Shown in pieces: positions 37,843-62,600 of a DNA stretch of 64,000 bases. Each line of letters begins with the position of its first letter. The stretch's first letter is position 1. Location: positions 96,001 through 160,000 of IMG/VR virus record IMGVR_UViG_3300022701_000122, one strand, 5' to 3'. This stretch comes from a virus. A program made the position numbers and the translations under genes. A model generated the notes under the pieces. The model was not told where the DNA came from and searched no databases. It worked only from the letters and a program-made list of their open reading frames with translations.

Positions 37843-38372
37843 TGTTTATATCAGAAGAATATATTAAAAACTTTTTTCATTATGAATATTGGCTTTCCAG
37901 AAATTTATGGAATGATAAAGTACATGAAGCCATGAAGACGTTTGGTGTCTTTTTTGATTTAGAAAATAATGATACTAATAAAGAACAAAGAAATATTACA
38001 ATTCCACAAGATAGATGGGAACATTCTAAGTGTAAATTTAGATGTGAAATGTGGGTTGCTGGTGGTGATTGGGAGTATCCAGTTCATTATTTTAGATGTC
38101 AATTAGCAGACGGTTATGCTTATGAATTGCGACAATATGGTGATCCATTTTTTATTTTTATACCAAATAAAGAAGAAGGTAACTCCCATCTTGTTGAAAT
38201 TGATAAGGGTAAAAATAAAGGTGATTTTAGAGCGCCTCATGATGGTGAAAAAGAATATGATCCAAAAGTAGATAAAAATCCAAGTAAACGTAAATGTTGG
38301 GAATCATTAAATAAATATTTGAAAAAATTGGTTGATATGGAAATTGAGAAGAATAAAAAGGGTAAAGAGTGA
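37842..38372 (+). CDS. Hypothetical protein with a leader (MFISEEYI)
   Basis: Shared N-terminal leader. Confidence 0.75.
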   Translation: MFISEEYIKNFFHYEYWLSRNLWNDKVHEAMKTFGVFFDLENNDTNKEQRNITIPQDRWEHSKCKFRCEMWVAGGDWEYPVHYFRCQLADGYAYELRQYGDPFFIFIPNKEEGNSHLVEIDKGKNKGDFRAPHDGEKEYDPKVDKNPSKRKCWESLNKYLKKLVDMEIEKNKKGKE

Positions 38373-38947
38373 TGTTCATATCTGAAGAATATGTTACTAT
38401 ACAAAATAGAAAAGTTTATCATTTAGTTACTGGTAATATTAAAACAATAAAGAAGTATGGATTGTGTTCTCCACGTAGAATGTATGAAGTTGATAAAAAT
38501 TTATTTATGAAAACTTCTTATTCTATTTATCAGAAACGTGCGGCAGATTATAAAAATATTTCTATTAATGACGTAACAGCAGAAGATATATTATATTACT
38601 TAGATAATTCACCTCAACGAGTACCACAATTTAGCTCACGTTCTTTATTTTTTAGTTATTTGCCTCTATCTGAACATCATAATGATTTACAAAAATATTT
38701 TTCAAATGCTATAGAATTAAGCTTACCAATGAAATTTTTAGAAATGTATTATAGCAAACCAGTAATTGTTGGACCAGGACCACCTGCTATTGTTAGCAAT
38801 TGGAATATTATTAAAGATCCCAAGTTTATGGAAACTGTTAAGAAAGCAGCAAGAAGGAAGCCGCATCCAGTACTTAGATTTAAATATATTCCACATTTAG
38901 CAGTTGATGCTTACCATATTCCATTTAATAAATTTGAGGTTATTTAA
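38369..38947 (+). CDS. Leader-bearing protein, possible ADP-ribosyltransferase fold
   Basis: MFISEEYV then VYHLVT..I.TI.KYGL.S, SLFFS, IELSL (an H..T..I...GL pattern of ART-like folds). Confidence 0.5.
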   Translation: MMFISEEYVTIQNRKVYHLVTGNIKTIKKYGLCSPRRMYEVDKNLFMKTSYSIYQKRAADYKNISINDVTAEDILYYLDNSPQRVPQFSSRSLFFSYLPLSEHHNDLQKYFSNAIELSLPMKFLEMYYSKPVIVGPGPPAIVSNWNIIKDPKFMETVKKAARRKPHPVLRFKYIPHLAVDAYHIPFNKFEVI

Positions 38948-39018
38948 TGTATATATCAGAACAATTCATAAATGAAAAATGTAGTAGTACAGATCGAATA
39001 AAAAAACTAAAGTATTAG
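38947..39018 (+). pseudogene. Orphan leader remnant (MYISEQFINEKCSSTDRIKKLKY*)
   Basis: The first 45 nt are nearly identical to the start of 39606; it stops after an A run, and another frame continues briefly. Confidence 0.55.
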
Positions 39019-39075
39019 CAGAAGAAAAATATAAATCAGCTAAAGAATGTATGTTAAAAATGGGGGTTAAAATAA

Positions 39076-39603
39076 ATGTATATATCAGAACAATACTTAA
39101 ATGAATTTTTAAAAGGTAAATATTCATACATACACATTGATCTTATAAAAATATATAATGAATATCTATCAAATATAAGAAATTGTGTTAGATATTATGA
39201 TGAAAATAATCAAGGGGATAATGAATTACATTTTTTTATAATAGAGCACGGTCATATAAGTATACCAGTAACTACTAAAATGGAATATGGTTCATTTGTT
39301 CAAAATTTACCAATTTTTTCTATTCGTAAAAGAGATACTTATAAAGATTCTGGTTTCCATAGTGTTTATTTTGAACATAATATACCGATTACTAAATTCG
39401 CATTATGTACTGCACTCAATGATCAGAAATTATTAATGAATTGTCTTAAATTTATTAATAATACAAATATTGATGAATTATATAATGGTTACTTTTGGGA
39501 TAGAGATTATTGTATTGGTAGTTATGATTATATTAAAAAAGATATTAAATATTCTTTAAATCAATATAAACAAATGATTATAGAATTTAAAAGGAAAATG
39601 TAA
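39076..39603 (+). CDS. Hypothetical protein with a leader (MYISEQYLNE)
   Basis: Shared N-terminal leader. Confidence 0.75.
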   Translation: MYISEQYLNEFLKGKYSYIHIDLIKIYNEYLSNIRNCVRYYDENNQGDNELHFFIIEHGHISIPVTTKMEYGSFVQNLPIFSIRKRDTYKDSGFHSVYFEHNIPITKFALCTALNDQKLLMNCLKFINNTNIDELYNGYFWDRDYCIGSYDYIKKDIKYSLNQYKQMIIEFKRKM

Positions 39604-39605
39604 AT

Positions 39606-40328
39606 ATGTATATATCAAAACAATTCATAAATGAAAAATGTAGTAGTACAATAATGTTTTTATCGGAACAATACTTAACTGAAAAATTAGAAGACATCAG
39701 AGTTGATAAAAAATGGTATGATTTATTTAATACTAAATTGAAAAAAGCTTTATTAAAAGAAACTGAAATGGTATTTCTAAAACATTTTAGATTATCTCAT
39801 CCAATTATTGATTCAAGAAAAACATCTATGATATTTGATCATCAAATACTTGGAGTTAGTATTAGTGTTACTATTGTATTATATGATAAATTTGGAAATC
39901 GTATAATGTATGAAAGTGAAGATTTTCCAGGTCAAGATCAATTTGCTGTGTATTTAAAAAGAAATAAAAAATCTGGAAGATGGAGTATAGAATATTATAA
40001 CTTGAATGTTAAAGAGGAATATAGAAATAAAGGTATAGAACGACAATTGATGCAGTCAGTAAATAAATGTGTAAAAATATTGCAAAATGAACGAACTGTA
40101 ACTCTTGAAACGATGGATGATGAACGATATTTTATCTCAAGAATGCCTGGAGTTCGATTTGCAGATGGAGATCCTTATGGAATAATTGGTGTTCAAAAAG
40201 CTTATAAATATTGGTGCAGGAGGAATAAGATACCATATGAAATTCTTACTTTACCATCAGAATACCCAAGAGATTTTTTAACTTCAAAACATGCACCACC
40301 TTTTATAGAATATGTTATCAATATTTAA
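39606..40328 (+). CDS. GNAT-like protein with a tandem double leader
   Basis: MYISKQFINE-KCSSTI-MFLSEQYLTE; LNVKEEYRNKGIERQLM acetyl-CoA-binding-like motif. Confidence 0.6.
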   Translation: MYISKQFINEKCSSTIMFLSEQYLTEKLEDIRVDKKWYDLFNTKLKKALLKETEMVFLKHFRLSHPIIDSRKTSMIFDHQILGVSISVTIVLYDKFGNRIMYESEDFPGQDQFAVYLKRNKKSGRWSIEYYNLNVKEEYRNKGIERQLMQSVNKCVKILQNERTVTLETMDDERYFISRMPGVRFADGDPYGIIGVQKAYKYWCRRNKIPYEILTLPSEYPRDFLTSKHAPPFIEYVINI

Positions 40329-40351
40329 TATATGATCAAGAGGGATAATAA

Positions 40352-43300
40352 ATGCAATTTAACAAATTAAAATTATATAAACCGATTACTAATATAGTTG
40401 TACCTCAAACAGGTTATAACTCATTAAATATATGTTTAGCATATTTTCCAGAAAATACGTCATTTCTTGAATCATTTAATTATATACATATAAAACCATC
40501 AAATAGTGTTAAACGTATATTAATCCCCAAAACAAAAAAACCACCAACACATCTTACAAATAAATATAAAAGAGAATTGATGGATAGAAAATTGATTCCA
40601 GCAAGAGGATTCTTTGGTGATTATAGTAGAATGATCGGTAAGAATTTTTATTTAGATTTTGGATTATTTATAAATAGAATCGCTAAAGTATATGATATAA
40701 CGAATTATAATGTAGGAAGACCGTATAATATGATTCAGCAGTTAATGAATACTTTAGATGAAACAGAATCTAATTTTTATACAACTGTATTATATTCAGT
40801 AAATATAGAGAAATCTTTGTCTTCAAAATTAATTAGAAGAAGAGTATTTCCTATATATAAAATGATTGCTGATAAATTAACTGGTAAATTGGAATCTTTA
40901 CCATTCAAACGAGTTATACTACATATATTCAATCATTCGAATTCAATGTTTAATATGGTTTATGATGAATATGAGAATAATAGTATATCCAGATTAAAAT
41001 CAGTATTATCTAAAGTATATAGTGTCAATGAAGCTGATTCTGAATTTGTAGAAAAAGAAGAAATATCTAAAGATATATCTTCTGATCTTATAAAGAAATA
41101 TTCATCACTGAAAAAGTATGGGAAACCAATTCAAGATTCTATATCAAATTTATTACAATCTGACTCAACTCTACATAGTGTTACATCAGATAATATAAAT
41201 AAAGATATGCTATCATTATCAGCACTTGCTTATAATATAACAGGCGATATAGATAAGTCAAAAAATATAGCTAAATCTATAATGAATATATCTGATAATG
41301 TTAAAAGAGATACTGCTATAAACAATTTAGTAACTAGTTTTTCAGAAATGATGATTAAACGTCCACCTATAACATCATATTCTGATAATCCAATAGTTAC
41401 TGCTTCTAAGCCGATACAAATAACTGATGGAAAAGTACCATCTCATATATTAGAAAAAAGAAAAATGGATTTTGAAAATATATTAAGAGATGATTTGGAA
41501 TCAGTATTTAAACCATTTAAGAATGAGTTTGTTCCAATAGAAGTTGTAGATCTTGAAGTAAAACACATTGAATCTCCACCAGGAGAATTGAAGAAGACAT
41601 TACTTGATAGATATTTAATAAAATTAAAAGATGGTGATGGTAAAATACACAATGTAACAATAGAAATACCAACACTTACCAAAAATGGAACGTTTACTAT
41701 TAATGGTCAAGATAAAGTATTAGTTAATCAATTAGTACCATTTCCCATTTTTTTCTTGAAGCCATATTCTGGTCGATTTGAATCAATATATTCAACTATT
41801 ACTATATATAGTCGCCATCTTAAAAATACATCATATTTACATTCGTTTATATCAAATTATTATGTTCCATTAATGATGGTTTTTGGATATAAAGTTGGTT
41901 TTAAAGATACAATGGATTTATTCAAAGTTAGATATAAAATAGTTAAAGAAAAACCAACTTTTAATCCAGATATAGAACAAGTTGTAAGATTATTAGATGG
42001 AAGATATATAATATTTACACATGGTCAAGATAATCAAGTTGGTTATGAGATGGTAGAATCTTTTAAACGATGCATGAAAGATTTTCCAAAAAGAAATGTT
42101 GATGTAGAAGATACAAAATTTTGGATGAGAGTATTGATAAATAATATCGGAACAAGAAATTGTATTTATATGATAGATCTTGTTTGGAAATATATTGTTA
42201 CTCCATCTGAAGAAAAGATATTGAAATCGAGAGGTTATCCAACTGATATTGTAAATATATTGAAATATATATGCGATGAAGTTGTAAAAGGAAGAGTAGA
42301 TGATCGAAATTCAGTAGATCGACAAAGAGTTAGAACAAGTGAAGTATTTACACATTCTATTCAAAAACAAGTAATTGCTGCATATAACGAATTTTTAAGT
42401 AAAAAATTAGGGGGTGATGAAACAGCAGAAATAAGAATAGATCCAAAGAAAGCATTCAATGAAATTGCTCATTCTCAAAATGTGCAAGCATTAGAGATGA
42501 TTAATCCAATGGAAGAATTATCAATGATGACGAGAATAACTCCAATTGGTATTGGTGGTATTCCAGATAAGAATGCTTTTCCACAAGTAGCGATGAATGT
42601 TCATGATACATATTATGGTAATATAGATCCATTTGAAACTCCAGATGGACCTGGCATTGGAATTCAACAACATTTAACAGTTGGTGCAGCGCTGACAAAT
42701 GCGAGAGGTCAATTTAATGTAAAAGATCGTGGAATGATAACTCCAACTGAAATACTTAGTGTCGGACCATGCATGGTTCCATTTGTTGAATCAAATGATG
42801 GTCCAAGAATCACGATGGGTACGGGTCAATCAAAGCAAGCATTACCACTTGTCAATCCAGAAAATCCAGCTATTCAAACTGGTTATGAGTCATTATTTAC
42901 TCCATTATTATCCGATTCATTTATAAAAAAATCACCAGTGGATGGTAAAATTGTAGAAATAACTGATGCATTTATAACGATTGAAGATAAATTAACTGGT
43001 GAAAATATAACAGTTAGTATTGCTCCGAAAAAGATAAAAAGTGGACAGGGTAAATATGGATTAAGTAAATTTAAACCCGTAGTGAAGAAGGGACAAATTG
43101 TAAAGAAGAATGCACTAATGGCAGAAGGTGCAAATATAAAGAATGGTTTAATAAGTAATGGGATAAATCTTTTAACTGCTGTTATGCCTTGGAAAGGCTA
43201 CAATTTCGAAGATGGTATAGTTTTATCTAAATCAGCATCGAATAAATTCTTATCTGCCCATATAGAAGAGAAACAGTTATATTTAGATGTAGATGATGAA

Positions 43301-44461
43301 TTGATATTTATATCGCAAATAGGCGATACAATAAAAAAGGGTGGAATAATTGCCACTCGTTCTAAAGCTCTGTACGATGTAGAATCATACAATCATACGC
43401 ATTGTGATGGTGGAACATTGACTTATATAGAGGTGTATTCTAACGTAGAAGAAGAAGAGATACCAGAAAAGTTAGTACCAATATATAAAGATTTTAAACA
43501 CCAATATGAGTTAATAAATGGAACTTACCCGACTGGTAAGTTTAGAGAAAAACAGAGCAAGATAGAAGGTATATTAATAAAATTCACACTTGAGCAACAA
43601 TTAGTACTTAATAAAGGTGATAAATTAAATAATAGACATGGGAATAAAGGAGTAGTCGGTATAATAGAAGATGATGAAAATATGCCTCGTACACCGTGGG
43701 GCGAACATTGTGAAATCGTAATTAATCCAATTGGTATAGTCAATAGAATGAATAACGGTCAGTTGTTCGAAATACATTGTGGTTTGATTTCTCGTGAATT
43801 ATCAAAACAAATGGGTAAACTTGAGCGTCAAGCATTTATAAAATTATACGAAAGAGTTCTCTCTTTCTTAGATGGAACAAAGAATCAACAATATAGTAAA
43901 AACGTAATCCAATATCTTACCAAAATATCAGATAAAAAATACAACGAAGTTAAAACAAAACTCGTTAATGATAGATTTATCCCATTACTTTTTACACCAT
44001 TCAAGTCACCTACCCGAATGAATATTCTTGATGCATTAAAAGTTGTTGGATTAAAGCCAAAATATCCAGTTACATTTACTTGGAATGATAAAAAGATAAA
44101 AACTGATCCAGTAAATATTGGATATATGTTAGTTCAAAAATTAGAACATTTGGCTGATAAAAAGATGGCTACGAGAGGAGTTGGTGCATATGTTGGTAAA
44201 ACTTTGGCTCCTACTCAAGGTAAGAGGAGGGGTGGGGGTCAGTTTTGTGGAGAATATGATATGTATGGGTTGCTCTCATGGGATTGCCCATTGGTCATAG
44301 AAGAATTTTTTGGACCATTATCTTCAGATCATCCCACTAAAAATGAGATGATTGGAGAGTTAATACAAACCGGTGAATGTGAAACTAAAAGAGCGAAAAC
44401 GAATCCAGTTAAAGATCTTCTTTCACAAATGTTTACAGCTATACATTTAGAATCACAATAA
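40352..44461 (+). CDS. rpoB: Phage RNA polymerase beta subunit with a long N-terminal extension
   Basis: GTFTINGQDKVLVNQL, IDPFETPDG, SNDGPRITMG..QSKQA, YNFEDGI, GDKLNNRHGNKGVV, NPIGIVNRMNNGQ, KLEHL, GGGQFCGEYD. Confidence 0.95.
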   Translation: MQFNKLKLYKPITNIVVPQTGYNSLNICLAYFPENTSFLESFNYIHIKPSNSVKRILIPKTKKPPTHLTNKYKRELMDRKLIPARGFFGDYSRMIGKNFYLDFGLFINRIAKVYDITNYNVGRPYNMIQQLMNTLDETESNFYTTVLYSVNIEKSLSSKLIRRRVFPIYKMIADKLTGKLESLPFKRVILHIFNHSNSMFNMVYDEYENNSISRLKSVLSKVYSVNEADSEFVEKEEISKDISSDLIKKYSSLKKYGKPIQDSISNLLQSDSTLHSVTSDNINKDMLSLSALAYNITGDIDKSKNIAKSIMNISDNVKRDTAINNLVTSFSEMMIKRPPITSYSDNPIVTASKPIQITDGKVPSHILEKRKMDFENILRDDLESVFKPFKNEFVPIEVVDLEVKHIESPPGELKKTLLDRYLIKLKDGDGKIHNVTIEIPTLTKNGTFTINGQDKVLVNQLVPFPIFFLKPYSGRFESIYSTITIYSRHLKNTSYLHSFISNYYVPLMMVFGYKVGFKDTMDLFKVRYKIVKEKPTFNPDIEQVVRLLDGRYIIFTHGQDNQVGYEMVESFKRCMKDFPKRNVDVEDTKFWMRVLINNIGTRNCIYMIDLVWKYIVTPSEEKILKSRGYPTDIVNILKYICDEVVKGRVDDRNSVDRQRVRTSEVFTHSIQKQVIAAYNEFLSKKLGGDETAEIRIDPKKAFNEIAHSQNVQALEMINPMEELSMMTRITPIGIGGIPDKNAFPQVAMNVHDTYYGNIDPFETPDGPGIGIQQHLTVGAALTNARGQFNVKDRGMITPTEILSVGPCMVPFVESNDGPRITMGTGQSKQALPLVNPENPAIQTGYESLFTPLLSDSFIKKSPVDGKIVEITDAFITIEDKLTGENITVSIAPKKIKSGQGKYGLSKFKPVVKKGQIVKKNALMAEGANIKNGLISNGINLLTAVMPWKGYNFEDGIVLSKSASNKFLSAHIEEKQLYLDVDDELIFISQIGDTIKKGGIIATRSKALYDVESYNHTHCDGGTLTYIEVYSNVEEEEIPEKLVPIYKDFKHQYELINGTYPTGKFREKQSKIEGILIKFTLEQQLVLNKGDKLNNRHGNKGVVGIIEDDENMPRTPWGEHCEIVINPIGIVNRMNNGQLFEIHCGLISRELSKQMGKLERQAFIKLYERVLSFLDGTKNQQYSKNVIQYLTKISDKKYNEVKTKLVNDRFIPLLFTPFKSPTRMNILDALKVVGLKPKYPVTFTWNDKKIKTDPVNIGYMLVQKLEHLADKKMATRGVGAYVGKTLAPTQGKRRGGGQFCGEYDMYGLLSWDCPLVIEEFFGPLSSDHPTKNEMIGELIQTGECETKRAKTNPVKDLLSQMFTAIHLESQ

Positions 44462-44466
44462 ATAAT

Positions 44467-44480
44467 TATATATATTAAAT
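44467..44480 (+). promoter_or_regulatory. Putative promoter motif B
   Basis: tatatatattaaat directly after the rpoB stop. Confidence 0.5.
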
Positions 44481-44507
44481 ATTAATATATAATCATTTGG
44501 TTTTTTA

Positions 44508-44545
44508 GGGGAATTAGTTTTTATACTGATTCCCCTTCTTTCTTT
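44508..44545 (+). terminator. Terminator-like hairpin
   Basis: ggggaattagt / actgattcccc, then ttctttcttt. Confidence 0.75.
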
Positions 44546-44573
44546 GTAAAATCAATTTTATTTGGAGATCGTT

Positions 44574-46736
44574 ATGAAAGAAATTAGTTTAACATGTCAA
44601 GTATGTGGAAAAGTAACTAAAACTGAAAGTGGTCTTGGATTACATATTTCAAGATCTAAAAAAGATCATCCTACCATTAAAGAATATTTTGATCTTTATA
44701 TCAAAGAAGAACAAGATGGAATTTGTTCTTTAGATGGCTGTGAAAATAAAACCAAGTTTAGAAATTTGGTAAAAGGGTATGGTCCTTATTGTTCTCCAAA
44801 ATGCATGAATAATTCACCGGAGAGAAAGAAAGCTATAAAGGAAGGAGTAAGGAAAAAGTATGGTGTTGATAATGTATTTCAATCAAAGAAGATTAAAGAA
44901 AAAACTAAACAAATGTATTTAGAAAAATATGGTGTAGAACATAATTCTCAACTTAAAGAAGTAGTTCAAAAAAGAAGAAATACAATGTTAAGAAGATATG
45001 GTGAAACTCATTATTTAAAAACAGAAGAGGGAATGGATCGAGTTAGAAAAACCAATTTAGAAAAATATGGTACTGAATATGTGTTACAAAATGAAGATAT
45101 TAAAGCTAAAGCAGATGCTACTGTTAAAGAGAAATACGGTGTTGATAATGTATTTCAAAATGAAGATATAAAAGAAAAATCAAGAGAAACGATACAAGAG
45201 AAATATGGTGTTGATAATGTATCTCAAAATGAAAATATAAAAAATAAGAAAAGAGAAACAAATCTTAGAAGACATGGTGTTCAACAACCTTTTCAATCTG
45301 AAAAAATATGGAACAAAGTTAAACAAACTTGGTTAAGTAAACATGGATTTGATAATATATCTAAACTTGGTGAGACAAAAGATAAAAAGAAAAAAACATC
45401 TTTAAAAAATCATGGTGTAGAACACCCTCTTCAATCAGAACAAGTTAAATCAAAAATGAAACAAACTAATTTAGAAAGATATGGTGCTGTTGCACCTACT
45501 CAAAATGAAGGTGTAATGGCTAAAATGAGAGAAAATAATTTGGATAAATATGGAGTAGAGTATGTATCACAAGTAGAAGAATTTAAACAAAAAAAGATAG
45601 AAACCAATCTTGAAAGATATGGTTGTAAAGTACCAACTCAGAATAAAGAAATTATGAGTAAAGTAATAAGAACACAACATAAGAAATTTTTTAATGAATT
45701 ATTAAATGGTAATAGATTAAATGATTTATGTATTCCTGATTTTGGATTGGATGATTATAAAGGAATAAAATGTAAATACAATTGGATATGTAAAAAATGT
45801 AGTAATAAATTTAAAGATCATTTATATAATAATCTTATTCCAAGATGCCCTATCTGTTTCCCTATATATTCTTCTATGTCAGAAATAGAAGTTCTTGAAT
45901 TTGTTAAATCTATTTATGATGGAGAAATAATTCCTGGTGATAGATCCATATTAAAAAACAGAGAACTTGATATATATCTTCCAGAATTAAAATTGGCTAT
46001 AGAGTTTAATGGTTTATATTGGCATAGTGAAGGAAGAGGAAAAGACAAAAATTACCACATCGATAAAACAAAAAGATGTGCAGAGAAGGGTATTCAGCTA
46101 ATACATATATTTGAAGATGAATGGAATTATAAACAAGATATCGTTAAATCAATATTAATAGCGAAAATGGGATTATGTAAAAATAGAATATACGCAAGAA
46201 AATGTGAAGTTCATATTGTAACAAATAACAATGATATATGGGAATTTTATAATGATAATCATATTCAGGGTCCAATTCATGGGAATACAACTTTTTCTTT
46301 AAAATATGAAAATGAATATGTTGCAATGATGACAATTGGAAAGAGTAGATTTCATAAAGAAGAAATTTATGAAATTCTAAGATTTTGTGTCAAAAAAGAT
46401 ACTATAGTTGTTGGTGGGTTATCAAAATTAATGAAACAAGTAAGACTTCATCAATTTGGAAAAGTTATCAGTTATGTTGATTTGAGATATGGAAATGGGA
46501 ATGGTTACGAATTAGCAGGAATGAAATTTGTTAAATATACTCAGCCAAATTATTTCTATGTTCGTAATGGTGATTTCATTAGAGAATCAAGAATTAAATA
46601 TCAGAAACATAAATTAGAGAAACAATTAGAAATATTCGATCCAGAATTAACTGAATGGGAAAATATGCAATTAAATGATTTTGATAGAGTATATGATTGT
46701 GGGAATAAATTATATGAATTAGTAATAGAGAAATAA
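44574..46736 (+). CDS. Second Hef-like repeat-array endonuclease (12 x 23-aa repeats)
   Basis: Same architecture as 29697; ELDIYLPELKLAIEFNGLYWH, LIHIFEDEW. ATG at 44574 (track TTG 44562). Confidence 0.8.
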   Translation: MKEISLTCQVCGKVTKTESGLGLHISRSKKDHPTIKEYFDLYIKEEQDGICSLDGCENKTKFRNLVKGYGPYCSPKCMNNSPERKKAIKEGVRKKYGVDNVFQSKKIKEKTKQMYLEKYGVEHNSQLKEVVQKRRNTMLRRYGETHYLKTEEGMDRVRKTNLEKYGTEYVLQNEDIKAKADATVKEKYGVDNVFQNEDIKEKSRETIQEKYGVDNVSQNENIKNKKRETNLRRHGVQQPFQSEKIWNKVKQTWLSKHGFDNISKLGETKDKKKKTSLKNHGVEHPLQSEQVKSKMKQTNLERYGAVAPTQNEGVMAKMRENNLDKYGVEYVSQVEEFKQKKIETNLERYGCKVPTQNKEIMSKVIRTQHKKFFNELLNGNRLNDLCIPDFGLDDYKGIKCKYNWICKKCSNKFKDHLYNNLIPRCPICFPIYSSMSEIEVLEFVKSIYDGEIIPGDRSILKNRELDIYLPELKLAIEFNGLYWHSEGRGKDKNYHIDKTKRCAEKGIQLIHIFEDEWNYKQDIVKSILIAKMGLCKNRIYARKCEVHIVTNNNDIWEFYNDNHIQGPIHGNTTFSLKYENEYVAMMTIGKSRFHKEEIYEILRFCVKKDTIVVGGLSKLMKQVRLHQFGKVISYVDLRYGNGNGYELAGMKFVKYTQPNYFYVRNGDFIRESRIKYQKHKLEKQLEIFDPELTEWENMQLNDFDRVYDCGNKLYELVIEK
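44829..45656 (+). repeat. 12 tandem 69-nt (23-aa) coding repeats
   Basis: e.g. KTNLEKYGTEYVLQNEDIK, QTNLERYGAVAPTQNEGVM. Confidence 0.92.
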
Positions 46737-46740
46737 TTAT

Positions 46741-46944
46741 ATGAATACAATTACAATAAATCAATTTATTATATTATATAAATATAATCCTGTAACATTA
46801 GATAATTTAACCATTAATTATAATGTAACAAGAAGAGAATATTGGATTAATTTAAGCAATTCGTTTAACTGGTATATGTTAAAAGATCCAATTAATATTT
46901 TTAATATAATCAATAATATAGGAATTAACGGAATAATAGTATGA
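46741..46944 (+). CDS. C-tail family small protein
   Basis: Ends INIFNIINNIGINGIIV. Confidence 0.65.
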   Translation: MNTITINQFIILYKYNPVTLDNLTINYNVTRREYWINLSNSFNWYMLKDPINIFNIINNIGINGIIV

Positions 46945-47321
46945 GTTTTTCAGATTTTATTGAATGGTGTTTTATTAATAACAATATTAGAATAAAATAT
47001 AATAAATCAGTTAAAAAATATGTTGTAAGTTTAGACTGTCTTGATGAATGGTATGGTTTAGATGATTATGACTGTATACTATTTGAGGATGTAATTGATA
47101 ATATAGGAATTAAAGGAATAATAATTATGAATGTGATGGATGAAAATTATTTGCTTGAAGGTCTTGTATGTGATTTTAACAGCATCATAATAAATTATAA
47201 TTATTCGATTAACCAATATTTAATAACTTTTAATAATTTTGCTAAATTATATATTCTTGACGATTATTTACGTATAGATAATGTAATAACTGAACTTGGA
47301 AATTATGGGATTATATTATGA
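46941..47321 (+). CDS. C-tail family protein (two fused units)
   Basis: Internal ILFEDVIDNIGIKGIII-M; ends RIDNVITELGNYGIIL. Confidence 0.7.
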   Translation: MSFSDFIEWCFINNNIRIKYNKSVKKYVVSLDCLDEWYGLDDYDCILFEDVIDNIGIKGIIIMNVMDENYLLEGLVCDFNSIIINYNYSINQYLITFNNFAKLYILDDYLRIDNVITELGNYGIIL

Positions 47322-47560
47322 GCGTTGTTAGAATTAATTGTGATATAAGAAGATTTATAATGTATTTAAATCGTATAGCTCCAAAATATAAAGATGATGT
47401 ATTAGAGTTTTTAAAATCACCATTTTATATAGAATACGATAAATATATTAATAAATTTAAAGCGAAAGTTCTATATATTCCTATATATTATAGAATAAAT
47501 GATAATGTTAATGTATATGATGCTATAACTAAACTTAATTATAAGGGGTTTATATGGTAG
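47318..47560 (+). CDS. C-tail family small protein
   Basis: Ends VNVYDAITKLNYKGFIW. Confidence 0.65.
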   Translation: MSVVRINCDIRRFIMYLNRIAPKYKDDVLEFLKSPFYIEYDKYINKFKAKVLYIPIYYRINDNVNVYDAITKLNYKGFIW

Positions 47561-47808
47561 GAACACTTATTAATTATAATATGAATAGCGTTTTACATGC
47601 TATAAGACGTGATAACGTTAATAATAAAAAATTCAGAATAGATGATTGTAAGGTTATTATATTTAAAAATAGTGATTATTTATTAGTTTCAAGTTGCAGA
47701 TTAAAATATAATAACTATGGTGACGATTGGTGGTATTCTATAGATGATCCGATTTGTTTTGATAGTGTAATTAAAAATATAGGAAATAATGGAGTAATAT
47801 ATGAATGA
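47554..47808 (+). CDS. C-tail family small protein
   Basis: Ends ICFDSVIKNIGNNGVIYE. Confidence 0.65.
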   Translation: MVGTLINYNMNSVLHAIRRDNVNNKKFRIDDCKVIIFKNSDYLLVSSCRLKYNNYGDDWWYSIDDPICFDSVIKNIGNNGVIYE

Positions 47809-48031
47809 TAAATATAGTTTACATGATGCTATGGTAGAATGTATGAACCAACCAAAAGGTTTAATCGATGACAATATTGATCATGGAATAGGAGTTATAT
47901 ATGGAAAATCAACTTGTTTATATTATATATATGCAAAAAATAATAATCATTTTGTAATAAAGAGTATTGATGATTATGTAAAATTTGAAGATGTTGTACA
48001 TAAACTTTCTAAAACTGGAGTTATTATATGA
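47801..48031 (+). CDS. C-tail family small protein
   Basis: Ends VKFEDVVHKLSKTGVII. Confidence 0.65.
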   Translation: MNDKYSLHDAMVECMNQPKGLIDDNIDHGIGVIYGKSTCLYYIYAKNNNHFVIKSIDDYVKFEDVVHKLSKTGVII

Positions 48032-48411
48032 TTAATAGAATTATATTTATAAATAATGTTAAAGTTAATGGATTTAGTCGTTATGAATTTATATTAACAA
48101 TATTTATAAATGATCGTGATGTAGATATAAAAAATATCTATCATTTATTTAAGTTATATGAGTTGAAACTTAAAGTTGATAAAGTTCTACATCAAATACC
48201 TATTGGAAGACGAACTTCCATATTAAATATTAATAAATATAATTGTTCTATAAATAATGAACATATACATGATTTACGAGATGTAAGACAATTGATAAAT
48301 AATCATTTTAGATGTTCAGATCCAGAAATTAGAAAAATAATATTTAAACAGAGTATAATTAATTTTGAATATATTTTATTAAATATTAGTAATATAGGAG
48401 CTATATTATGA
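48028..48411 (+). CDS. C-tail family protein
   Basis: Ends INFEYILLNISNIGAIL. Confidence 0.65.
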   Translation: MINRIIFINNVKVNGFSRYEFILTIFINDRDVDIKNIYHLFKLYELKLKVDKVLHQIPIGRRTSILNINKYNCSINNEHIHDLRDVRQLINNHFRCSDPEIRKIIFKQSIINFEYILLNISNIGAIL

Positions 48412-49307
48412 TTGATATATCTACTGTTACCACTTTTGGTTCAGAAGGTCGAGTCAAGTATAAATTTGAATCTGGACATGATTTATGGGTTAATCATGAT
48501 GATCTAACATGGAAGTTAACATCTGATGTATTTATTGGATTAAGAGAAAGTCAGAATTTTGGATTTAAAGTAAAATATAATGGTTTTTATAAAAAAAGAT
48601 TTGGAATATTTGTATATAATAATGTTGTGTTTAATCGTTCTGACGTTGGGCATCTTACTAAACTCAATATGATGATAAGAAGAGTTGCAAAATATATAAA
48701 AAAATATAAAGATAATATAAATGAGATAGAATATAAGAATAGTAAATATAGAGTAAATAAAGCAAAAAAAATTGTGGCGATATATTTATATGGAAGAGAA
48801 TATTATCTTACAACATTATATAGAATAATTATTAATTATTCTATATATATATCTGAATATTATAATGTAGAAGATAGAATTGAAAGAATTACTGCTTGTG
48901 ATTTGGCAGATTATGTATGTAATATATCGAATACAGGGATAATTATGAAATCTATAAAGTCATTTAAAGAAACCTTATTTTATTATGATTATGATCCACT
49001 TTATAGATTCAGTTCTGATTTCGATATTTTAAAAGTAAATGTATGTATAAATAATTTAATATTATTTAATATGTTATTTTATACACTTGAAAGTATAAAT
49101 ATATTTAATAAAAATAGTATTGTAGTTGCCGTAGGAAATCGTTTAGTTGATGTACTACTTACAACAGAAGTATTTCAATTTTTCAGAAATACAATGGAAG
49201 ATATAAAAAATAAATATGATATAAGTTATGATGATATACCAGTTAAAATAGTATTCATTGAAGATGTTATATTTAATTTGGGGGGAAGTGGTGGTATTAA
49301 TTTATAA
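48408..49307 (+). CDS. C-tail family protein (two fused units)
   Basis: Internal DLADYVCNISNTGII-M; ends VFIEDVIFNLGGSGGINL. Confidence 0.7.
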   Translation: MIDISTVTTFGSEGRVKYKFESGHDLWVNHDDLTWKLTSDVFIGLRESQNFGFKVKYNGFYKKRFGIFVYNNVVFNRSDVGHLTKLNMMIRRVAKYIKKYKDNINEIEYKNSKYRVNKAKKIVAIYLYGREYYLTTLYRIIINYSIYISEYYNVEDRIERITACDLADYVCNISNTGIIMKSIKSFKETLFYYDYDPLYRFSSDFDILKVNVCINNLILFNMLFYTLESINIFNKNSIVVAVGNRLVDVLLTTEVFQFFRNTMEDIKNKYDISYDDIPVKIVFIEDVIFNLGGSGGINL

Positions 49308-49731
49308 ACATGGATATATGGATTATTTAAACATGACAAACGATATGATGGCATTTGTTGGAAATATATTTGATCATATATGTCAAATGAAAGAAATATA
49401 TGATTGTGTTGTTTTAACTGAAAGTAAAGATATTATTATAAATGGAGAAATGTTTTATTATTGTGATTATAAACATATAATGATTATAAATGTATTATTT
49501 AATCATAATAGATTAAAATGTTATAATATGGAATATATATTTAAACTTGTTAGAGATAGATTGATACAAGAAGAAGAATTTATATCTGTTGTTTTAAGCA
49601 TAGCATTTCATAAAATAAATGAAGAATTTAAACTGATAGATGAGAAAAATGTAAGATTTCATAAATTTATAGATAAAATAAACATATATGAAATATTCAA
49701 TGTCATTTCTGATAAAGGGTATTTATTATGA
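49258..49731 (+). CDS. C-tail family protein (start uncertain)
   Basis: Ends INIYEIFNVISDKGYLL. Confidence 0.6.
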   Translation: MKMLYLIWGEVVVLIYKHGYMDYLNMTNDMMAFVGNIFDHICQMKEIYDCVVLTESKDIIINGEMFYYCDYKHIMIINVLFNHNRLKCYNMEYIFKLVRDRLIQEEEFISVVLSIAFHKINEEFKLIDEKNVRFHKFIDKINIYEIFNVISDKGYLL

Positions 49732-50267
49732 TAAAATATTTAAGATGGTCACCACGTGCAAATTTTGTATATATCAATCTACATATTCAAAGATTATTTA
49801 CATCAATTTTTAATTTAAAAAATTATAAATTAATATATGCACTGTATAAGTGTATTAATGTATTACGTATTAATGAACAAAAGTTTCATTCATATAATGA
49901 TGAAAATAAAATATTAAACTATTTAGAAAATAATAATATATACTATAGTAAAATATTAACAAAATTAAAAAAATACAATGGCTATCATATTCCAAGATAC
50001 ATTAAACCATTAACTGAATTGAATGTATTAATTAAGGTGAGTAATATGGCTATGTTATCAACTAATAATGTATTAATTGAAATATATAAGAATTTAACTT
50101 TAGTAAAAGATTTACATATAGCTGTATCGCTTTTTAGATATGATTTACGAAAAAATGGAATATACGACGATAAAAAACATAAAAAAATATTTAATGATCT
50201 TTTGAAGATAAAATCTATAAAATTTGATAATGTTATTGAGAAAATTTATAGGGGGGTTGTATGTTAA
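49728..50267 (+). CDS. C-tail family protein
   Basis: Internal YNGYHIP; ends IKFDNVIEKIYRGVVC. Confidence 0.65.
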   Translation: MIKYLRWSPRANFVYINLHIQRLFTSIFNLKNYKLIYALYKCINVLRINEQKFHSYNDENKILNYLENNNIYYSKILTKLKKYNGYHIPRYIKPLTELNVLIKVSNMAMLSTNNVLIEIYKNLTLVKDLHIAVSLFRYDLRKNGIYDDKKHKKIFNDLLKIKSIKFDNVIEKIYRGVVC

Positions 50268-50596
50268 GTAAACATATAAATTACGATATACTTAAAAATA
50301 ATTACTTTGATTGTAAAGATTATTTAAATATATTTAATCATTATTTATTTAAATCTTTAATTTATGATCATGATATAACTAACAATCTGATAATTAGAGT
50401 TGTAGATAATAATGGATCTTGTTATTTAACAAATAGTTCAACTATTTTACTTAATAAAAATGTATTCAAAAAAGAATGTGAATCTCGTCAATTCTTTCTA
50501 AGATTACAATATGGGCAACATATTCCAAAATTTATGAATGTAATAAATATTTATAATGTTATTAAAACAATCGGTAATATAGGTAGTATATTATGA
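50261..50596 (+). CDS. C-tail family protein (YGxHIP subgroup)
   Basis: YGQHIP...INIYNVIKTIGNIGSIL. Confidence 0.7.
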   Translation: MLSKHINYDILKNNYFDCKDYLNIFNHYLFKSLIYDHDITNNLIIRVVDNNGSCYLTNSSTILLNKNVFKKECESRQFFLRLQYGQHIPKFMNVINIYNVIKTIGNIGSIL

Positions 50597-50970
50597 ATAA
50601 AATTATAGGGTTATTCGAATCTTATCCCCAAATGGTTACTTTATTTAGAGAATATACTCATTATTTTATGAATGAGTTTTATAACGATGTAATTTCTGAA
50701 AATAAAAAATTAGATCTTTCAGATTATAGAACTATTTATTCATTATATTATCCTCGAACTATGAATACAATTAGACCTGAATATGATAATGGTGATTATA
50801 GGTGGCTTGAAATAATTGATGAACGTCGTGAATCATTTTATAATTCTATTGGAGATGAATTCTATCGAAATCTTAAATTAATACATGGTGATCATATACC
50901 AAAGAAAATAGATCATATTAAATTTGTAAATATTATTTATAATTTTGGATTAAAAGGGATAGTTATATAA
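50593..50970 (+). CDS. C-tail family protein (YGxHIP subgroup)
   Basis: HGDHIPKKIDHIKFVNIIYNFGLKGIVI. Confidence 0.7.
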   Translation: MNKIIGLFESYPQMVTLFREYTHYFMNEFYNDVISENKKLDLSDYRTIYSLYYPRTMNTIRPEYDNGDYRWLEIIDERRESFYNSIGDEFYRNLKLIHGDHIPKKIDHIKFVNIIYNFGLKGIVI

Positions 50971-51284
50971 TGCCGTCATTTAAACAACAAACTAAATTAA
51001 ATAGATTAATATATGATTGTACTCAATTTATAATGGGTAGATCTATGTTTTATATGGATTGGTTTGATTTAAAATTCACAGATATTGAAATAATATATTC
51101 TTTGTATTTTCCAATAAAATTTAAACATGGATTGCCATTACCATGTAAACCATTTATGCATAAATCTGGAGATAAATTGCTCAAAATATTTAGATCCAAA
51201 TATGGGAAACATATTCCAAAAAAAATAGATAAAATAACAATATTAACTATTTATAATAATAGTAATAGAGGGATAATATTATGA
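50970..51284 (+). CDS. C-tail family protein (YGxHIP subgroup)
   Basis: YGKHIPKKIDKITILTIYNNSNRGIIL. Confidence 0.7.
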   Translation: MPSFKQQTKLNRLIYDCTQFIMGRSMFYMDWFDLKFTDIEIIYSLYFPIKFKHGLPLPCKPFMHKSGDKLLKIFRSKYGKHIPKKIDKITILTIYNNSNRGIIL

Positions 51285-51616
51285 TGATTTATTCATGGAT
51301 ACAATTAATTCGAACTGGAATAAAAAAAGATTTAGAGAGAGTTTTATCTTATTATGTTTATGCGGATATTACTAAAAATAGAAGTAAATATAAAGGAAAA
51401 ATATTTAAAATTAAATCAATTGGTGGATATGATGGAATTTCAGTTGGTCTTACATCTGCCGAACATGTTATGAAGAGAGATTTTTTGCAAGTTGATTTGA
51501 ATAAATTATATAGAACTTTAAAATATGAATTTGGAAATCATGTTCCAGAATATATTGATATTCATGATTTTATTAATATGATTAAAATAATAACAAATAA
51601 TGGAATTTTATTATGA
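51281..51616 (+). CDS. C-tail family protein (YGxHIP subgroup)
   Basis: FGNHVPEYIDIHDFINMIKIITNNGILL. Confidence 0.7.
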   Translation: MMIYSWIQLIRTGIKKDLERVLSYYVYADITKNRSKYKGKIFKIKSIGGYDGISVGLTSAEHVMKRDFLQVDLNKLYRTLKYEFGNHVPEYIDIHDFINMIKIITNNGILL

Positions 51617-51726
51617 CAAAATTAGTTGATGAATGTGACAATAATTTATTTTCATATCCAACTATCGAATTTATAAGATTTGAAGAAATATTAAACAAAA
51701 TAAAGAAAGGAATAATAATAACATGA
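51613..51726 (+). CDS. 37-aa minimal C-tail family peptide (not in track)
   Basis: MTKLVDECDNNLFSYPTIEFIRFEEILNKIKKGIIIT*; ATGA-coupled at both ends. Confidence 0.6.
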   Translation: MTKLVDECDNNLFSYPTIEFIRFEEILNKIKKGIIIT

Positions 51727-51995
51727 CATACTTTCTTAATTCATCTATAAATAAATCTATACATAGAAAAAAGTATAATGGTAAACGATTGAAATTTAAA
51801 CTTAAATATCAAGATACAATAGGAAAATTAATCATTATGGGTGACGCAAATAGATCTATAAAAAGTTATATTTTAAAAACAATATATGAAGGACATAATA
51901 TATATGGTGTTGAAAAATATGATCAATATGAAATTACAGATTATGTTGATATAAATAACATTTATAAGAGATTTATTAAAGGATTTATATTATGA
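51723..51995 (+). CDS. C-tail family small protein
   Basis: Ends VDINNIYKRFIKGFIL. Confidence 0.65.
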   Translation: MTYFLNSSINKSIHRKKYNGKRLKFKLKYQDTIGKLIIMGDANRSIKSYILKTIYEGHNIYGVEKYDQYEITDYVDINNIYKRFIKGFIL

Positions 51996-52108
51996 GAGAA
52001 TTTAGAATATGTACGTCTGGCATGTCAAAAGATATACGAGAATTAAGTTACATATTTATTGATGATTTTATACTTGATACTTATAAATTTGGATGGTTTG
52101 TAATGTGA
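51992..52108 (+). CDS. 38-aa minimal C-tail family peptide (not in track)
   Basis: MREFRICTSGMSKDIRELSYIFIDDFILDTYKFGWFVM*. Confidence 0.5.
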   Translation: MREFRICTSGMSKDIRELSYIFIDDFILDTYKFGWFVM

Positions 52109-52111
52109 TGC

Positions 52112-52126
52112 GGACAAATAATAAAT
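52112..52126 (+). promoter_or_regulatory. Putative promoter motif A
   Basis: ggacaaataataaat upstream of 52157, a gene outside the C-tail family. Confidence 0.5.
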
Positions 52127-52156
52127 TGAATATATAATATTATAGGAGATATTACA

Positions 52157-52684
52157 ATGAGTATACTTGATATAGCAACAAGTTATTTGGTTGATGAAGA
52201 AGAGGCAGAAGAGTCGCAAACCGAAAAAAATGAAGATCTTCTGATTCTTCTTGATCAAAAAGATTTATTAAAATCTATAAGTATAAAAACGTCTAAATAT
52301 GATCTAAATTATTATTTAGATAATTTAGATATATTGAATGATGAATTTATACAGTTATTACTAAAACGATTTATAACTGTATATAGCTTAACTCCACTTA
52401 AACAATATCTATCCCCTGCTTTTTCGACTATAGATGTTCGTAAACATCTTATTAAGATTATAAAATTAATAAAGATAAAATTAGTTGAAGAATTAATAGA
52501 AGATGATTCTCTTCTTGATTTAATACGAAACGGGGATAGAGAAGAAATACTTGAGATATTTAATAATATAGAACCAAATATTTTCATGAATCATTCTATG
52601 AAATTCATAGATAATGATAGTTTAAAAAGATTTATTACTGTCATTGAGCGAGAAAACGAAGCGGAATATGATGAAAAGATATAA
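52157..52684 (+). CDS. Acidic hypothetical protein interrupting the C-tail array
   Basis: 175 aa, aggag RBS, lacks the C-tail. Confidence 0.75.
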   Translation: MSILDIATSYLVDEEEAEESQTEKNEDLLILLDQKDLLKSISIKTSKYDLNYYLDNLDILNDEFIQLLLKRFITVYSLTPLKQYLSPAFSTIDVRKHLIKIIKLIKIKLVEELIEDDSLLDLIRNGDREEILEIFNNIEPNIFMNHSMKFIDNDSLKRFITVIERENEAEYDEKI

Positions 52685-52732
52685 TTAAAATTTGGCTATA
52701 TCCAATTTTAAAGTAAATTATATGGAGAAATT

Positions 52733-53194
52733 ATGGGAGGATTTAAAGAGTATAGAATACATAGTAAATTTGGGATAGTGTATAAATTTTCTAATTATAG
52801 ATATTTAATCAATGGTTTATTAAAAAATAAATTTTTAGTTAAATTTATAAGTAATGCAATTTATACTCTTAGTTTCAATCATTACAATTTTAGTATTGTT
52901 AGAATGAAAATAACAGATTTTTCTGAATTATTTTATTATTATACATATTTGAATTTTTATATGAAAATTAATAAATTAACCATTAAAGATTATTATAATT
53001 ATATGAAATTTGAAAGAAAATCTTTAAATGAATATGATGATATTTCATATAGTGAATGGGAAACTTTTAGAAGAGTTGAACGTATAACACATGAAGCTAT
53101 AATAAAATATGGTAATCATATACCATTTACAATAAAGACTATATTTGTTGAAGATTTAATGAAGCTTGATAATTGTGGTTTTATAATGAATTGA
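52733..53194 (+). CDS. C-tail family protein (YGxHIP subgroup)
   Basis: YGNHIPFTIKTIFVEDLMKLDNCGFIMN. Confidence 0.7.
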   Translation: MGGFKEYRIHSKFGIVYKFSNYRYLINGLLKNKFLVKFISNAIYTLSFNHYNFSIVRMKITDFSELFYYYTYLNFYMKINKLTIKDYYNYMKFERKSLNEYDDISYSEWETFRRVERITHEAIIKYGNHIPFTIKTIFVEDLMKLDNCGFIMN

Positions 53195-53577
53195 TGAGGA
53201 GAAATTTTATGAGATTATATGAATATAGTAAAAGAATGTGGAATATTAATTATGAATCATATTCACTATTTAGATATATAAATACTGATTCAATAAAATA
53301 TAATAGATATGTATTATCAGTGTGTTTAGATAGTTATAAACAATTAACTTTTTATCATATAACATTATGGAATATAGTTAAAAGATTTAATTTAGAGTAT
53401 TCTGATAATGATATATTTGCAGATGCCCATTTTAGAAATTCTAATTATTTATTCTTTAGTAGATTTTATAATGTAAGATCTATCATATATGAAAAATATG
53501 GAAATATACATGCCATCATAAAAATAATATCGATACATGATATATATAATATCGGACTCAGTGGTATAATAATCTGA
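53173..53577 (+). CDS. C-tail family protein
   Basis: KYGNIHAIIKIISIHDIYNIGLSGIII. Confidence 0.65.
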   Translation: MWFYNELMRRNFMRLYEYSKRMWNINYESYSLFRYINTDSIKYNRYVLSVCLDSYKQLTFYHITLWNIVKRFNLEYSDNDIFADAHFRNSNYLFFSRFYNVRSIIYEKYGNIHAIIKIISIHDIYNIGLSGIII

Positions 53578-53582
53578 ATATA

Positions 53583-53604
53583 TATATATATTAAATTATA
53601 ACAT
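53583..53604 (+). promoter_or_regulatory. Putative promoter motif B followed by a hairpin
   Basis: tatatatattaaat-tat-aacat; gttggg/cccaac hairpin then Ts at about 53610-53637. Confidence 0.5.
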
Positions 53605-53657
53605 GTAAACGGTTGGGGGTATACCCAACATGTTTTGTTCATAGGAGAGATATATCT

Positions 53658-53966
53658 ATGACTGTGAGTATAGAAGAAATATTTGATTACATCAATTATC
53701 GACATTTGTTACGTTTTCACCAACAATTAGATGTCGATAATTGGTTGTCATCAGATTCATATTTTGCTTTTATAAATGATATACTTAAAGAAAATGAAGA
53801 TAATTATACTATCGGCAATGGATTTTACTGTAACCCTGGTGAATTCACACGTATAAAAAATACCATTATTGATAAATATGGTCATCATATTGATTTTAAT
53901 GATATATTTTTATGCAGAATGGATAGAGTTCTTAAAACTATTTGGAAGATAGGAGTTACGATATGA
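53658..53966 (+). CDS. Hypothetical protein, distant YGxHI family member
   Basis: KYGHHID; ATG at 53658 with an aggag RBS. Confidence 0.65.
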   Translation: MTVSIEEIFDYINYRHLLRFHQQLDVDNWLSSDSYFAFINDILKENEDNYTIGNGFYCNPGEFTRIKNTIIDKYGHHIDFNDIFLCRMDRVLKTIWKIGVTI

Positions 53967-62013: not shown

Positions 62014-62261
62014 ATAAAAAATTTAATGAATTTATGGATAATTTCATTCATGATTTTTATGATCGTGGTGGATCTCATTTTGATGTATATAAATCATCTA
62101 CCGATTATAAATCTAAATATTATAATGATGAATATCCAATATCTATAGATATATATACGCATGAAGGTGTATATTGTATTACTCATATATTAACTGAAAA
62201 GTGTTGTATATCTTTATTTGACATTTATCAAAATATATCATGTGGCCTTATATTGGAGTAA
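62010..62261 (+). CDS. C-tail family protein
   Basis: Ends ISLFDIYQNISCGLILE. Confidence 0.65.
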   Translation: MNKKFNEFMDNFIHDFYDRGGSHFDVYKSSTDYKSKYYNDEYPISIDIYTHEGVYCITHILTEKCCISLFDIYQNISCGLILE

Positions 62262-62265
62262 TATT

Positions 62266-62523
62266 ATGACGATAAGATTAACCGATAATATCAGAGATGT
62301 TTTATGTTACATAGATCTTTATAAAAGAAATTATAAGTATAATACAATGAGAGTTAAATATTGTTCACCCAATGAGTATGGAGTTTTAGTTTACGATAAT
62401 ACTTATTCGTTTGGATTAGTATTACACAATGGGTCATTTGGACATACTATATATCTAAATGACAAAGATTGTGTACTTTTTGATAAAATATATAGTATGT
62501 CGAGTGGGCTTATTTTAAACTGA
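62266..62523 (+). CDS. C-tail family protein
   Basis: Ends VLFDKIYSMSSGLILN; ATG at 62266 has a ggag RBS; the stop abuts tRNA-Gln. Confidence 0.65.
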   Translation: MTIRLTDNIRDVLCYIDLYKRNYKYNTMRVKYCSPNEYGVLVYDNTYSFGLVLHNGSFGHTIYLNDKDCVLFDKIYSMSSGLILN

Positions 62524-62600
62524 AGTGGCGTGGTCGAGTGGTTTAAGACACATGATTTTGGCTCATGTTTTCGCTGGTTCAAATCCAGCCGCCACTTCCA
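62524..62600 (+). tRNA. trnQ: tRNA-Gln(UUG)
   Basis: Acceptor agtggcg/cgccact, anticodon arm catga-ttttggc-tcatg, encoded CCA. Confidence 0.95.

Follow-up and report, generated by a model that had tools for sequence, protein, structure and literature searches.

A common C-terminal module on dissimilar small proteins encoded in tandem by a phage

Results

A row of small genes with one kind of C-terminal end

The IMG/VR virus record IMGVR_UViG_3300022701_000122 (182,757 bp, estimated to be 58% complete) carries a row of small genes whose products end in the same kind of C-terminal tail. We analysed 64,000 nucleotides of this phage record (bases 96001-160000, hereafter the window; positions refer to the window unless given as genome positions). 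The range 46741-53577 holds 18 tail-bearing genes, another member follows at 53613-53966, and the sole interruption is a tail-less gene at 52157-52684 (Table 1). Most junctions in the array are ATGA or similar overlaps between the stop codon of one gene and the start codon of the next. A greedy gene call on the whole record gave 234 genes, and in 32 of them glycine followed by three hydrophobic residues stands at most one residue from the C-terminus, compared with 2.7 expected from the rate of the pattern inside proteins (Poisson P ~3e-23). After inspection, 29 of these 32 were retained as family members: 20 in the array (46741-53966), four elsewhere in the window (4442, 61420, 61750 and 62218) and five or six downstream of the window, with nine members counted as scattered outside the array. 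An ungapped position-specific scoring matrix (PSSM) of 17 residues around the glycine, applied with leave-one-out, scored 20 of 28 tails above 8.4 bits, while the 99.9th percentile of the background (50,718 windows) was 4.6 bits; the low scorers are tails with a different spacing. Enrichment and PSSM together bear out a preliminary description, made by reading the letters of this DNA, in which a row of small genes with a common C-terminal tail had been proposed.

The tail comprises about 20 residues. Hydrophobic residues at positions i, i+3, i+4 and i+7 follow an Asp, Asn or Glu, then come three mostly polar or glycine residues, an invariant glycine and three hydrophobic residues, which we read as a helix, a turn and a short strand. 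The glycine is located three residues from the chain end in 22 of the 28 glycine-bearing members and four residues from it in the other six, all nine uncoupled genes included. The 29th member has the hydrophobic end without the glycine. A consensus given in the preliminary description holds when its positions are taken as property classes (15 C-termini and two internal sites match, against 0.77 in a residue-shuffled proteome). Taken literally it fully fits no C-terminus, and it is therefore a consensus and not a rule. No transmembrane segments were found in the members, and their isoelectric points are mixed (4.1-9.8).

The tail is selected as protein and, in coupled genes, its glycine codon also as a translation signal

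The glycine is invariant in 28 tails and is encoded by all four of its codons, with a third-position entropy of 1.71 bits compared with 1.60 bits for the genome. In the hydrophobic columns (-11, -8, -7, -4 and +1 to +3 from the glycine) entropy is low at codon position 2 only, which indicates selection for the class of residue. In the 16 genes that are coupled by overlap, the glycine codon lies 8-10 nt before the next ATG and is GGA or GGG in 15 cases. Behind each of the nine uncoupled genes lies a gap of 11-48 nt; their glycine codons are four GGT, two GGG, two GGA and one GGC. This is near the genome usage (GGT 47%, GGA 39%, GGG 9%, GGC 5%), and the difference between coupled and uncoupled genes is significant (Fisher P = 0.012). 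The tail is kept by selection at the protein level. Since uncoupled genes keep the glycine and coupled ones favour GGA or GGG, two separable layers exist: the glycine is selected everywhere, and in coupled genes its codon is selected in addition as a Shine-Dalgarno element. The earlier suggestion that part of the G-I-I end could be the overlapping ribosome-binding site (RBS) of the next gene agrees with the bias in coupled genes. Equally, its proposal that the tail is more than a by-product of that site is upheld, because the hydrophobic residues of the upstream helix are kept while codon positions 1 and 3 are free, and because uncoupled genes have GGT and GGC glycines. The tails that it listed at the uncoupled ends 4882, 52108, 53577, 61728 and 62523 are all present, the last abutting a tRNA-Gln at 62524.

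The proportion of synonymous differences (pS) between paralogues is 0.51-0.60 in tails and 0.52-0.55 in bodies. As tail pS equals body pS, the likeness of the tails does not result from recent gene conversion. Tail DNA is at most 69-81% identical over ~40 nt. This low identity and the saturated synonymous divergence, which tails share with bodies, speak against the idea that the tail is a recombination handle for shuffling cassettes.

Bodies of different classes share the tail only

Alignment separates the members into a short class of ~60-130 residues (with a WY-x-h-DD segment, h being hydrophobic), a class of 100-150 residues with the segment YGxHIP, and a long class of 170-200 residues; several singletons stand beside them. 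As far as can be detected by sequence comparison, the bodies form at least three classes without other similarity between them. Profile-profile alignment of the classes with hhalign joined no more than the final 23, 17 and 8 columns, at the C-terminal end, the hidden Markov models (HMMs) of the classes reached other classes at just 12-14 bits, and blastp of bodies from which the tail had been removed returned essentially nothing. At the N-termini of the members we found nothing in common beyond the second-codon bias that is expected from the ATGA overlap. The claim that the N-termini are unrelated thus stands between classes, where the tail alone aligns; it does not hold within the three classes, where bodies align as well. 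Tails of short forms independently predict those of long forms.

Body length ranges from ~12 to ~280 residues. At the lower end are two genes for peptides of 37 and 38 residues, which exist as described earlier, and the subgroup with YGxHIP comprises eight genes. The fusions with an internal tail copy were also confirmed. In 46941-47321, a fusion that appears to be recent, the copy reaches 26.7 bits and is the sole strong one; those in 48408-49307 and 49728-50267 are older and weak or decayed, a pattern that would be expected of a tail whose free end is important. Tail-like motifs inside the long forms did not reach significance.

The family was found in two phages only

Relatives were found via rpoB, and the three genomes compared are fragments (58-87% complete). 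One of the relatives, a 275-kb contig with 35% GC and an RNA polymerase beta gene 47-51% identical to that of the phage studied here, has 27 tail genes of its own. Of these, 22 lie in an array at the start of the contig, at another genome position and again with mostly ATGA junctions. The tail of this relative is one helical turn shorter and typically ends in G-h-x-I, and one long-form gene is homologous in both phages and has a similar neighbourhood. Two metagenomic relatives have no tail-bearing genes downstream of rpoB. In one relative rpoB is followed immediately by the homologue of the gene for the tail-less 175-residue protein, and in two others a single gene stands between them; as these syntenic sites are without the family, the array represents an insertion on both sides of the tail-less gene. 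In a third relative (69% complete), which has another row of small genes that share termini of their own, the family was not found, and one of its proteins that matched a long form at E = 3e-4 was rejected as a member. Because the genomes are fragments, a phyletic profile gave no partner for the tail: genes that the two tail-bearing phages share and the third genome lacks mostly fall in blocks missing from that genome.

Beyond the proteins of the query genomes themselves, no match was obtained among 5.8 billion proteins or in an exhaustive profile search of 1.84 billion representatives. A contig of 201 kb that is almost identical to the record also exists. Nothing scored above the cut-offs in Pfam (20 members and five of the relative) or in PHROGs (ten of those 20 and five further long-form members), the PDB gave no sequence match, and INPHARED contains no phage that resembles the array at the DNA level. 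A search with an HMM of the tail only, as the preliminary description had recommended, failed because the tail is too short: the seeds reached 13-39 bits, and a six-frame hmmsearch left the other members in the noise. A search of the relatives with the tail alignment gave no matches either; since a pattern scan of one of the same genomes found 27 tails, this negative is a failure of sensitivity. The family is a tandem paralogue expansion found only in this phage and one relative. These results establish a new orphan family that was amplified in tandem, whose module takes a phage-specific form in each of the two lineages.

The tail-bearing relative has a peptidyl-tRNA hydrolase gene just past its array and a ThyX gene inside it. 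A relative without the tail family (G001) has about 40 small genes of a different family at ~38,000-53,000 (loci L018-L019) in a row of the same general design, with a common start like M-[RK]-[LI]-[QK]-[VL] and ends like h-x-h-F-[KQE].

Genomic setting and promoter-like motifs

The record has 28% GC and the array, with 21-23%, is lower than the rest of the window. Nearly all genes in the window are on the plus strand, and the window holds four tRNAs. The phage encodes its own multisubunit RNA polymerase, with full-length beta (40352-44461) and beta-prime subunits, and further has DUF7487 homing-endonuclease-like genes, a split T4-type topoisomerase II, a clamp loader, a primase, a family-B DNA polymerase and an HK97-type major head protein. 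We identified no sliding clamp.

Two promoter-like motifs were noticed (Table 1). Motif A is an exact 12-mer, TATATATTAAAT. Of its 15 genomic copies almost all lie between genes, ahead of a gene, a homing-endonuclease-like gene or an RNA region, and the motif is probably a promoter class of the phage's own polymerase. Motif B, [AC]GGACAAA, is often followed by TAAAT 3-6 nt on. On both strands it precedes many genes at a distance of 13-100 nt, and in three cases GTGTGG or CTGTGG stands 17-18 nt ahead of the motif. An attempt to assign a temporal class to the array from these motifs failed, as motif B is found ahead of rpoC and the clamp-loader gene as well as the head-gene operon.

Other features of the genome deserve mention. 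The genes for the large and medium subunits of topoisomerase II (genome 165398-170223; L045:5398-10223), which are adjacent in relatives, are split by two tail-bearing genes and one other small gene. On the minus strand at genome 42386-42769 (L128:2386-2769), a protein of 127 residues with an RF-1 domain, an ArfB-like ribosome-rescue factor, is encoded; it is 50% identical to the product of a gene of the tail-bearing relative and was not found in the third, incomplete genome. The open reading frame of the family-B DNA polymerase (861 residues, genome 44817-48172, minus strand, L128) ends soon past its YADTDS motif and spans only about two thirds of the phage polymerase profile, with a gene for a QueE-like radical-SAM protein next to it; possibly the polymerase is split or interrupted. 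In the relative G003, a second, divergent pair of RNA polymerase beta and beta-prime, 25-28% identical, lies at 164964-171391 (loci L038-L039), and a second set may likewise exist in the missing part of the present genome.

Table 1. Members of the tail family and neighbouring features in the window
Feature	Position	Strand	Remarks
Context: rpoB (40352-44461) and DUF7487 homing-endonuclease-like gene (44562-46736)	40352..46736	+	directly upstream of the array
Promoter-like motif A between rpoB and DUF7487 endonuclease gene	44469..44480	+	closest signal upstream of the array
Member, 67 aa, short (WY-DD) class	46741..46944	+	first gene of the array; tail PSSM
Member, 126 aa, two short-class units fused	46941..47321	+	internal tail copy aa 46-62 (26.7 bits), then at once Met of unit 2
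Member, 80 aa, short class	47318..47560	+	
Member, 84 aa, short class	47554..47808	+	tail followed by one more residue
Member, 76 aa, short class	47801..48031	+	
Member, 127 aa, short class	48028..48411	+	N-terminus longer
Member, 299 aa	48408..49307	+	weak internal tail copy ~aa 164-180; Gly-rich tail; only itself among 5.8 billion proteins
Member, 157 aa counted from TTG	49258..49731	+	ATG at ~49310, just past the preceding stop, probably fits better than the mechanical TTG
Member, 179 aa	49728..50267	+	internal YGxHIP-like copy, then decayed tail
Member, 111 aa, YGxHIP class	50261..50596	+	
Member, 125 aa, YGxHIP class	50593..50970	+	AF2 model pLDDT 50
Member, 104 aa, YGxHIP class	50970..51284	+	
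Member, 111 aa, YGxHIP class	51281..51616	+	
Member, 37 aa	51613..51726	+	hardly more than tail; both ends ATGA-coupled
Member, 90 aa	51723..51995	+	
Member, 38 aa	51992..52108	+	hardly more than tail; uncoupled, followed by a 48-nt gap with promoter-like motif B
Non-member, acidic, 175 aa, no tail	52157..52684	+	homologue in relatives right after rpoB or one gene on
Member, 153 aa, YGxHIP class	52733..53194	+	
Member, 134 aa, YGxHIP class	53173..53577	+	uncoupled, 35-nt gap with promoter-like motif A
Member, 117 aa, YGxHIP class	53613..53966	+	just beyond 46741-53577; TTG start probably wrong, ATG of the public gene call (102 aa; 53613-53658) fits better
Scattered member, 146 aa	4442..4882	+	uncoupled; Gly codon GGT; only itself among 5.8 billion proteins
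Scattered member, 102 aa	61420..61728	+	tRNA region; uncoupled
Scattered member, 87 aa	61750..62013	+	uncoupled
Scattered member, 101 aa, YGxHIP-like	62218..62523	+	stop abuts tRNA-Gln (62524-62600)
Motif A sites	44469, 53585, 18603, 29625, 54257, 56485		others elsewhere in the genome
Motif B sites	4888, 7463, 17478, 22883, 26747, 34377, 52111, 59451		

Discussion

Roughly one in eight of the called genes of this phage carries the terminal module, on which selection is evident, and the design recurs in a related phage with a version of its own. We tentatively favour the explanation that these genes are a fast-evolving tandem family of small soluble phage proteins and that the module at their C-termini serves them all for docking. 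This stretch of ~20 residues, the only feature common to the whole family, would dock via its free C-terminal end, so that one reader, a host or a phage protein, could handle many unlike bodies through it. The bodies would diversify meanwhile, probably in host takeover or counter-defence. This explanation is suggested by the modularity of the family, the fixed terminal position of the module, the decay of internal copies, the existence of peptides that are hardly more than tail, and the alternating end pattern of the relative, which would suit docking as a strand. The earlier proposal of a common tag on variable payloads is partly supported by our results, namely by the constraint on amino acids and by the presence of one module on dissimilar bodies.

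Several observations weigh against a docking element. Within classes, conservation extends 10-25 residues upstream of the tail, and the tail may for this reason be no free tag but the most conserved part of a folded domain. The shared end could also be explained by descent through tandem duplication alone. A comparison of nonsynonymous with synonymous differences among paralogues gave slightly lower pN/pS in tails (0.79-0.83) than in bodies (0.93-1.09), but these values are saturated and nearly uninformative. No partner was identified: neither PDZ_2 nor PDZ_6 matched in this phage or two relatives, and this fragment encodes neither ClpP nor a chaperonin; a reader may still come from the host. 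The AF2 models of the YGxHIP class (pLDDT 50) and of the long class (pLDDT 40) are unusable, and the Atlas model of one member is also poor, with uninformative nearest neighbours.

A bolder version of the docking explanation appears possible but is more speculative. The module may be an address label by which one reader grips about 29 unlike proteins at their free helix-glycine-strand end and handles them as a group, be it for recruitment, delivery or timed removal. The bodies would then make up an exchangeable payload library, the labels would be specific to each lineage, and other large phages might use other labels.

The strongest rival explanation dispenses with an outside reader. The tail would be the conserved core or a self-association element of one diverged family of small domains, in which the helix-glycine-strand unit closes the fold or pairs with another copy. 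All members are plausibly paralogues in tandem arrays, the strand-like WY-x-h-DD and YGxHIP segments are conserved upstream of the tail within classes, two-unit fusions occur naturally, and both AF2 models, although of very low confidence, place a helix over the tail after strands. On the other hand, a common core is difficult to reconcile with bodies that vary from ~12 to ~280 residues and show no similarity between classes in profile-profile comparison, proteins of 37-38 residues could hardly fold alone, and the internal tail-like motifs of long forms lack significance. Overall, we regard this rival as rather unlikely, though it has to be taken seriously.

Non-polar C-termini and ssrA-like ends are protease signals, and the tail could accordingly be a C-terminal degron, a non-polar free end on a helix that sends short-lived takeover proteins to a host protease. 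The extreme C-terminus is indeed non-polar in 28 members, where the hydrophobic triplet is terminal or one residue short of the end, and these strictly terminal residues keep a fixed distance from the glycine. However, a few residues at the very end are enough for known C-terminal degrons, while the conserved stretch here is of about 20, and the middle tail residue of the relative is free (G-h-x-I), which is more like docking of a strand. A degron is thus improbable. Less probable still is a tail that acts like the T4 capsid-targeting sequence, only from the C-terminus, or like the cargo peptides of encapsulins, and loads its carriers into the capsid or some other compartment built by the phage. 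The phage does possess an HK97-type major head protein, and encapsulin cargo peptides are C-terminal and dock on a shell of the HK97 fold; the array, however, lies apart from the head module, with RNA polymerase and nucleotide-metabolism genes, and lacks its own motif B site. We consider it very improbable that the amphipathic helix and the hydrophobic end form a peripheral membrane-targeting sequence as in MinD or FtsA: the amphipathic periodicity is clear and the terminus hydrophobic, but the helix opens with Asp, Asn or Glu and has no cationic face, transmembrane segments are absent and the charge varies among members. Finally, a mere nucleotide-level by-product with a functionless peptide, either of RBS and coupling signals, to which the position and GGA/GGG bias of the glycine codon in the 16 coupled members would point, or of a homology handle for cassette shuffling or gene conversion, as the 69-81% identity of some tails over ~42 nt might suggest, is largely refuted by the nine uncoupled genes that retain the tail with near-genomic glycine codons, by residue classes conserved over variable codon positions 1 and 3, by tail synonymous sites as diverged as those of bodies, and by the same design with different codons in the relative.

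Many genes of large phages encode small proteins whose function is unknown. Should the module be a docking standard, a tail peptide could expose the hub of dozens of takeover or counter-defence proteins and group many orphan genes. If the tail is instead no more than the most conserved part of a fold that evolves fast, a new orphan family has nonetheless been found, and with it a case of accordion-like expansion. In addition, two overlapping codes are separated here in the same codons, one for the amino acid (glycine) and one for codon choice as a ribosome-binding site.

The array shares features with several known systems. As in other ATGA-coupled operons, stop and start overlap and the last codons of the upstream gene carry the next Shine-Dalgarno element; unlike in plain coupling, the overlap accounts for the choice of glycine codon only: the helix, the invariant glycine and the hydrophobic end are kept in uncoupled genes too and are not explained by it. 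Short C-terminal docking peptides are found in the SspB tail, which tethers this adaptor to ClpX, in the cargo-loading peptides of encapsulins and in class II PDZ ligands. Like them, the module is a short peptide at the end of varied bodies, with hydrophobic residues in alternation and its carboxyl group free, but its conserved stretch is longer and includes a helix, and we found no PDZ domain in either fragment and no ClpP in this one. The G-h-h-h end may also resemble the mobile loop of GroES and the C-terminus of HslU.

Among phages, the internal proteins of T4 share only an N-terminal targeting peptide of ~10 residues, which is cut off by the prohead protease, and are few (Rao and Black 2010, PMC3012670). 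The T4 capsid-targeting sequence is similarly a short common terminal peptide on dissimilar, fast-evolving small phage proteins, and the present phage has other T4-like traits such as a split topoisomerase II, homing-endonuclease-like genes and a tRNA region. The module described here differs from it in being C-terminal, ~20 residues long and present on 29 proteins, without a cleavage motif or a link to head genes. The second comparison is with jumbo phages: Bacillus phage G has ~35 copies of a zinc ribbon, a lineage-specific expansion of small genes (Iyer et al. 2021, PMC7824862). Whereas that expansion has one recognisable domain, only the last 8-23 residues align between classes here, and the proteins contain no known domain. 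What the array has in common with such jumbo-phage expansions is dozens of tandem paralogues within one lineage, with a copy number and a position that vary among relatives.

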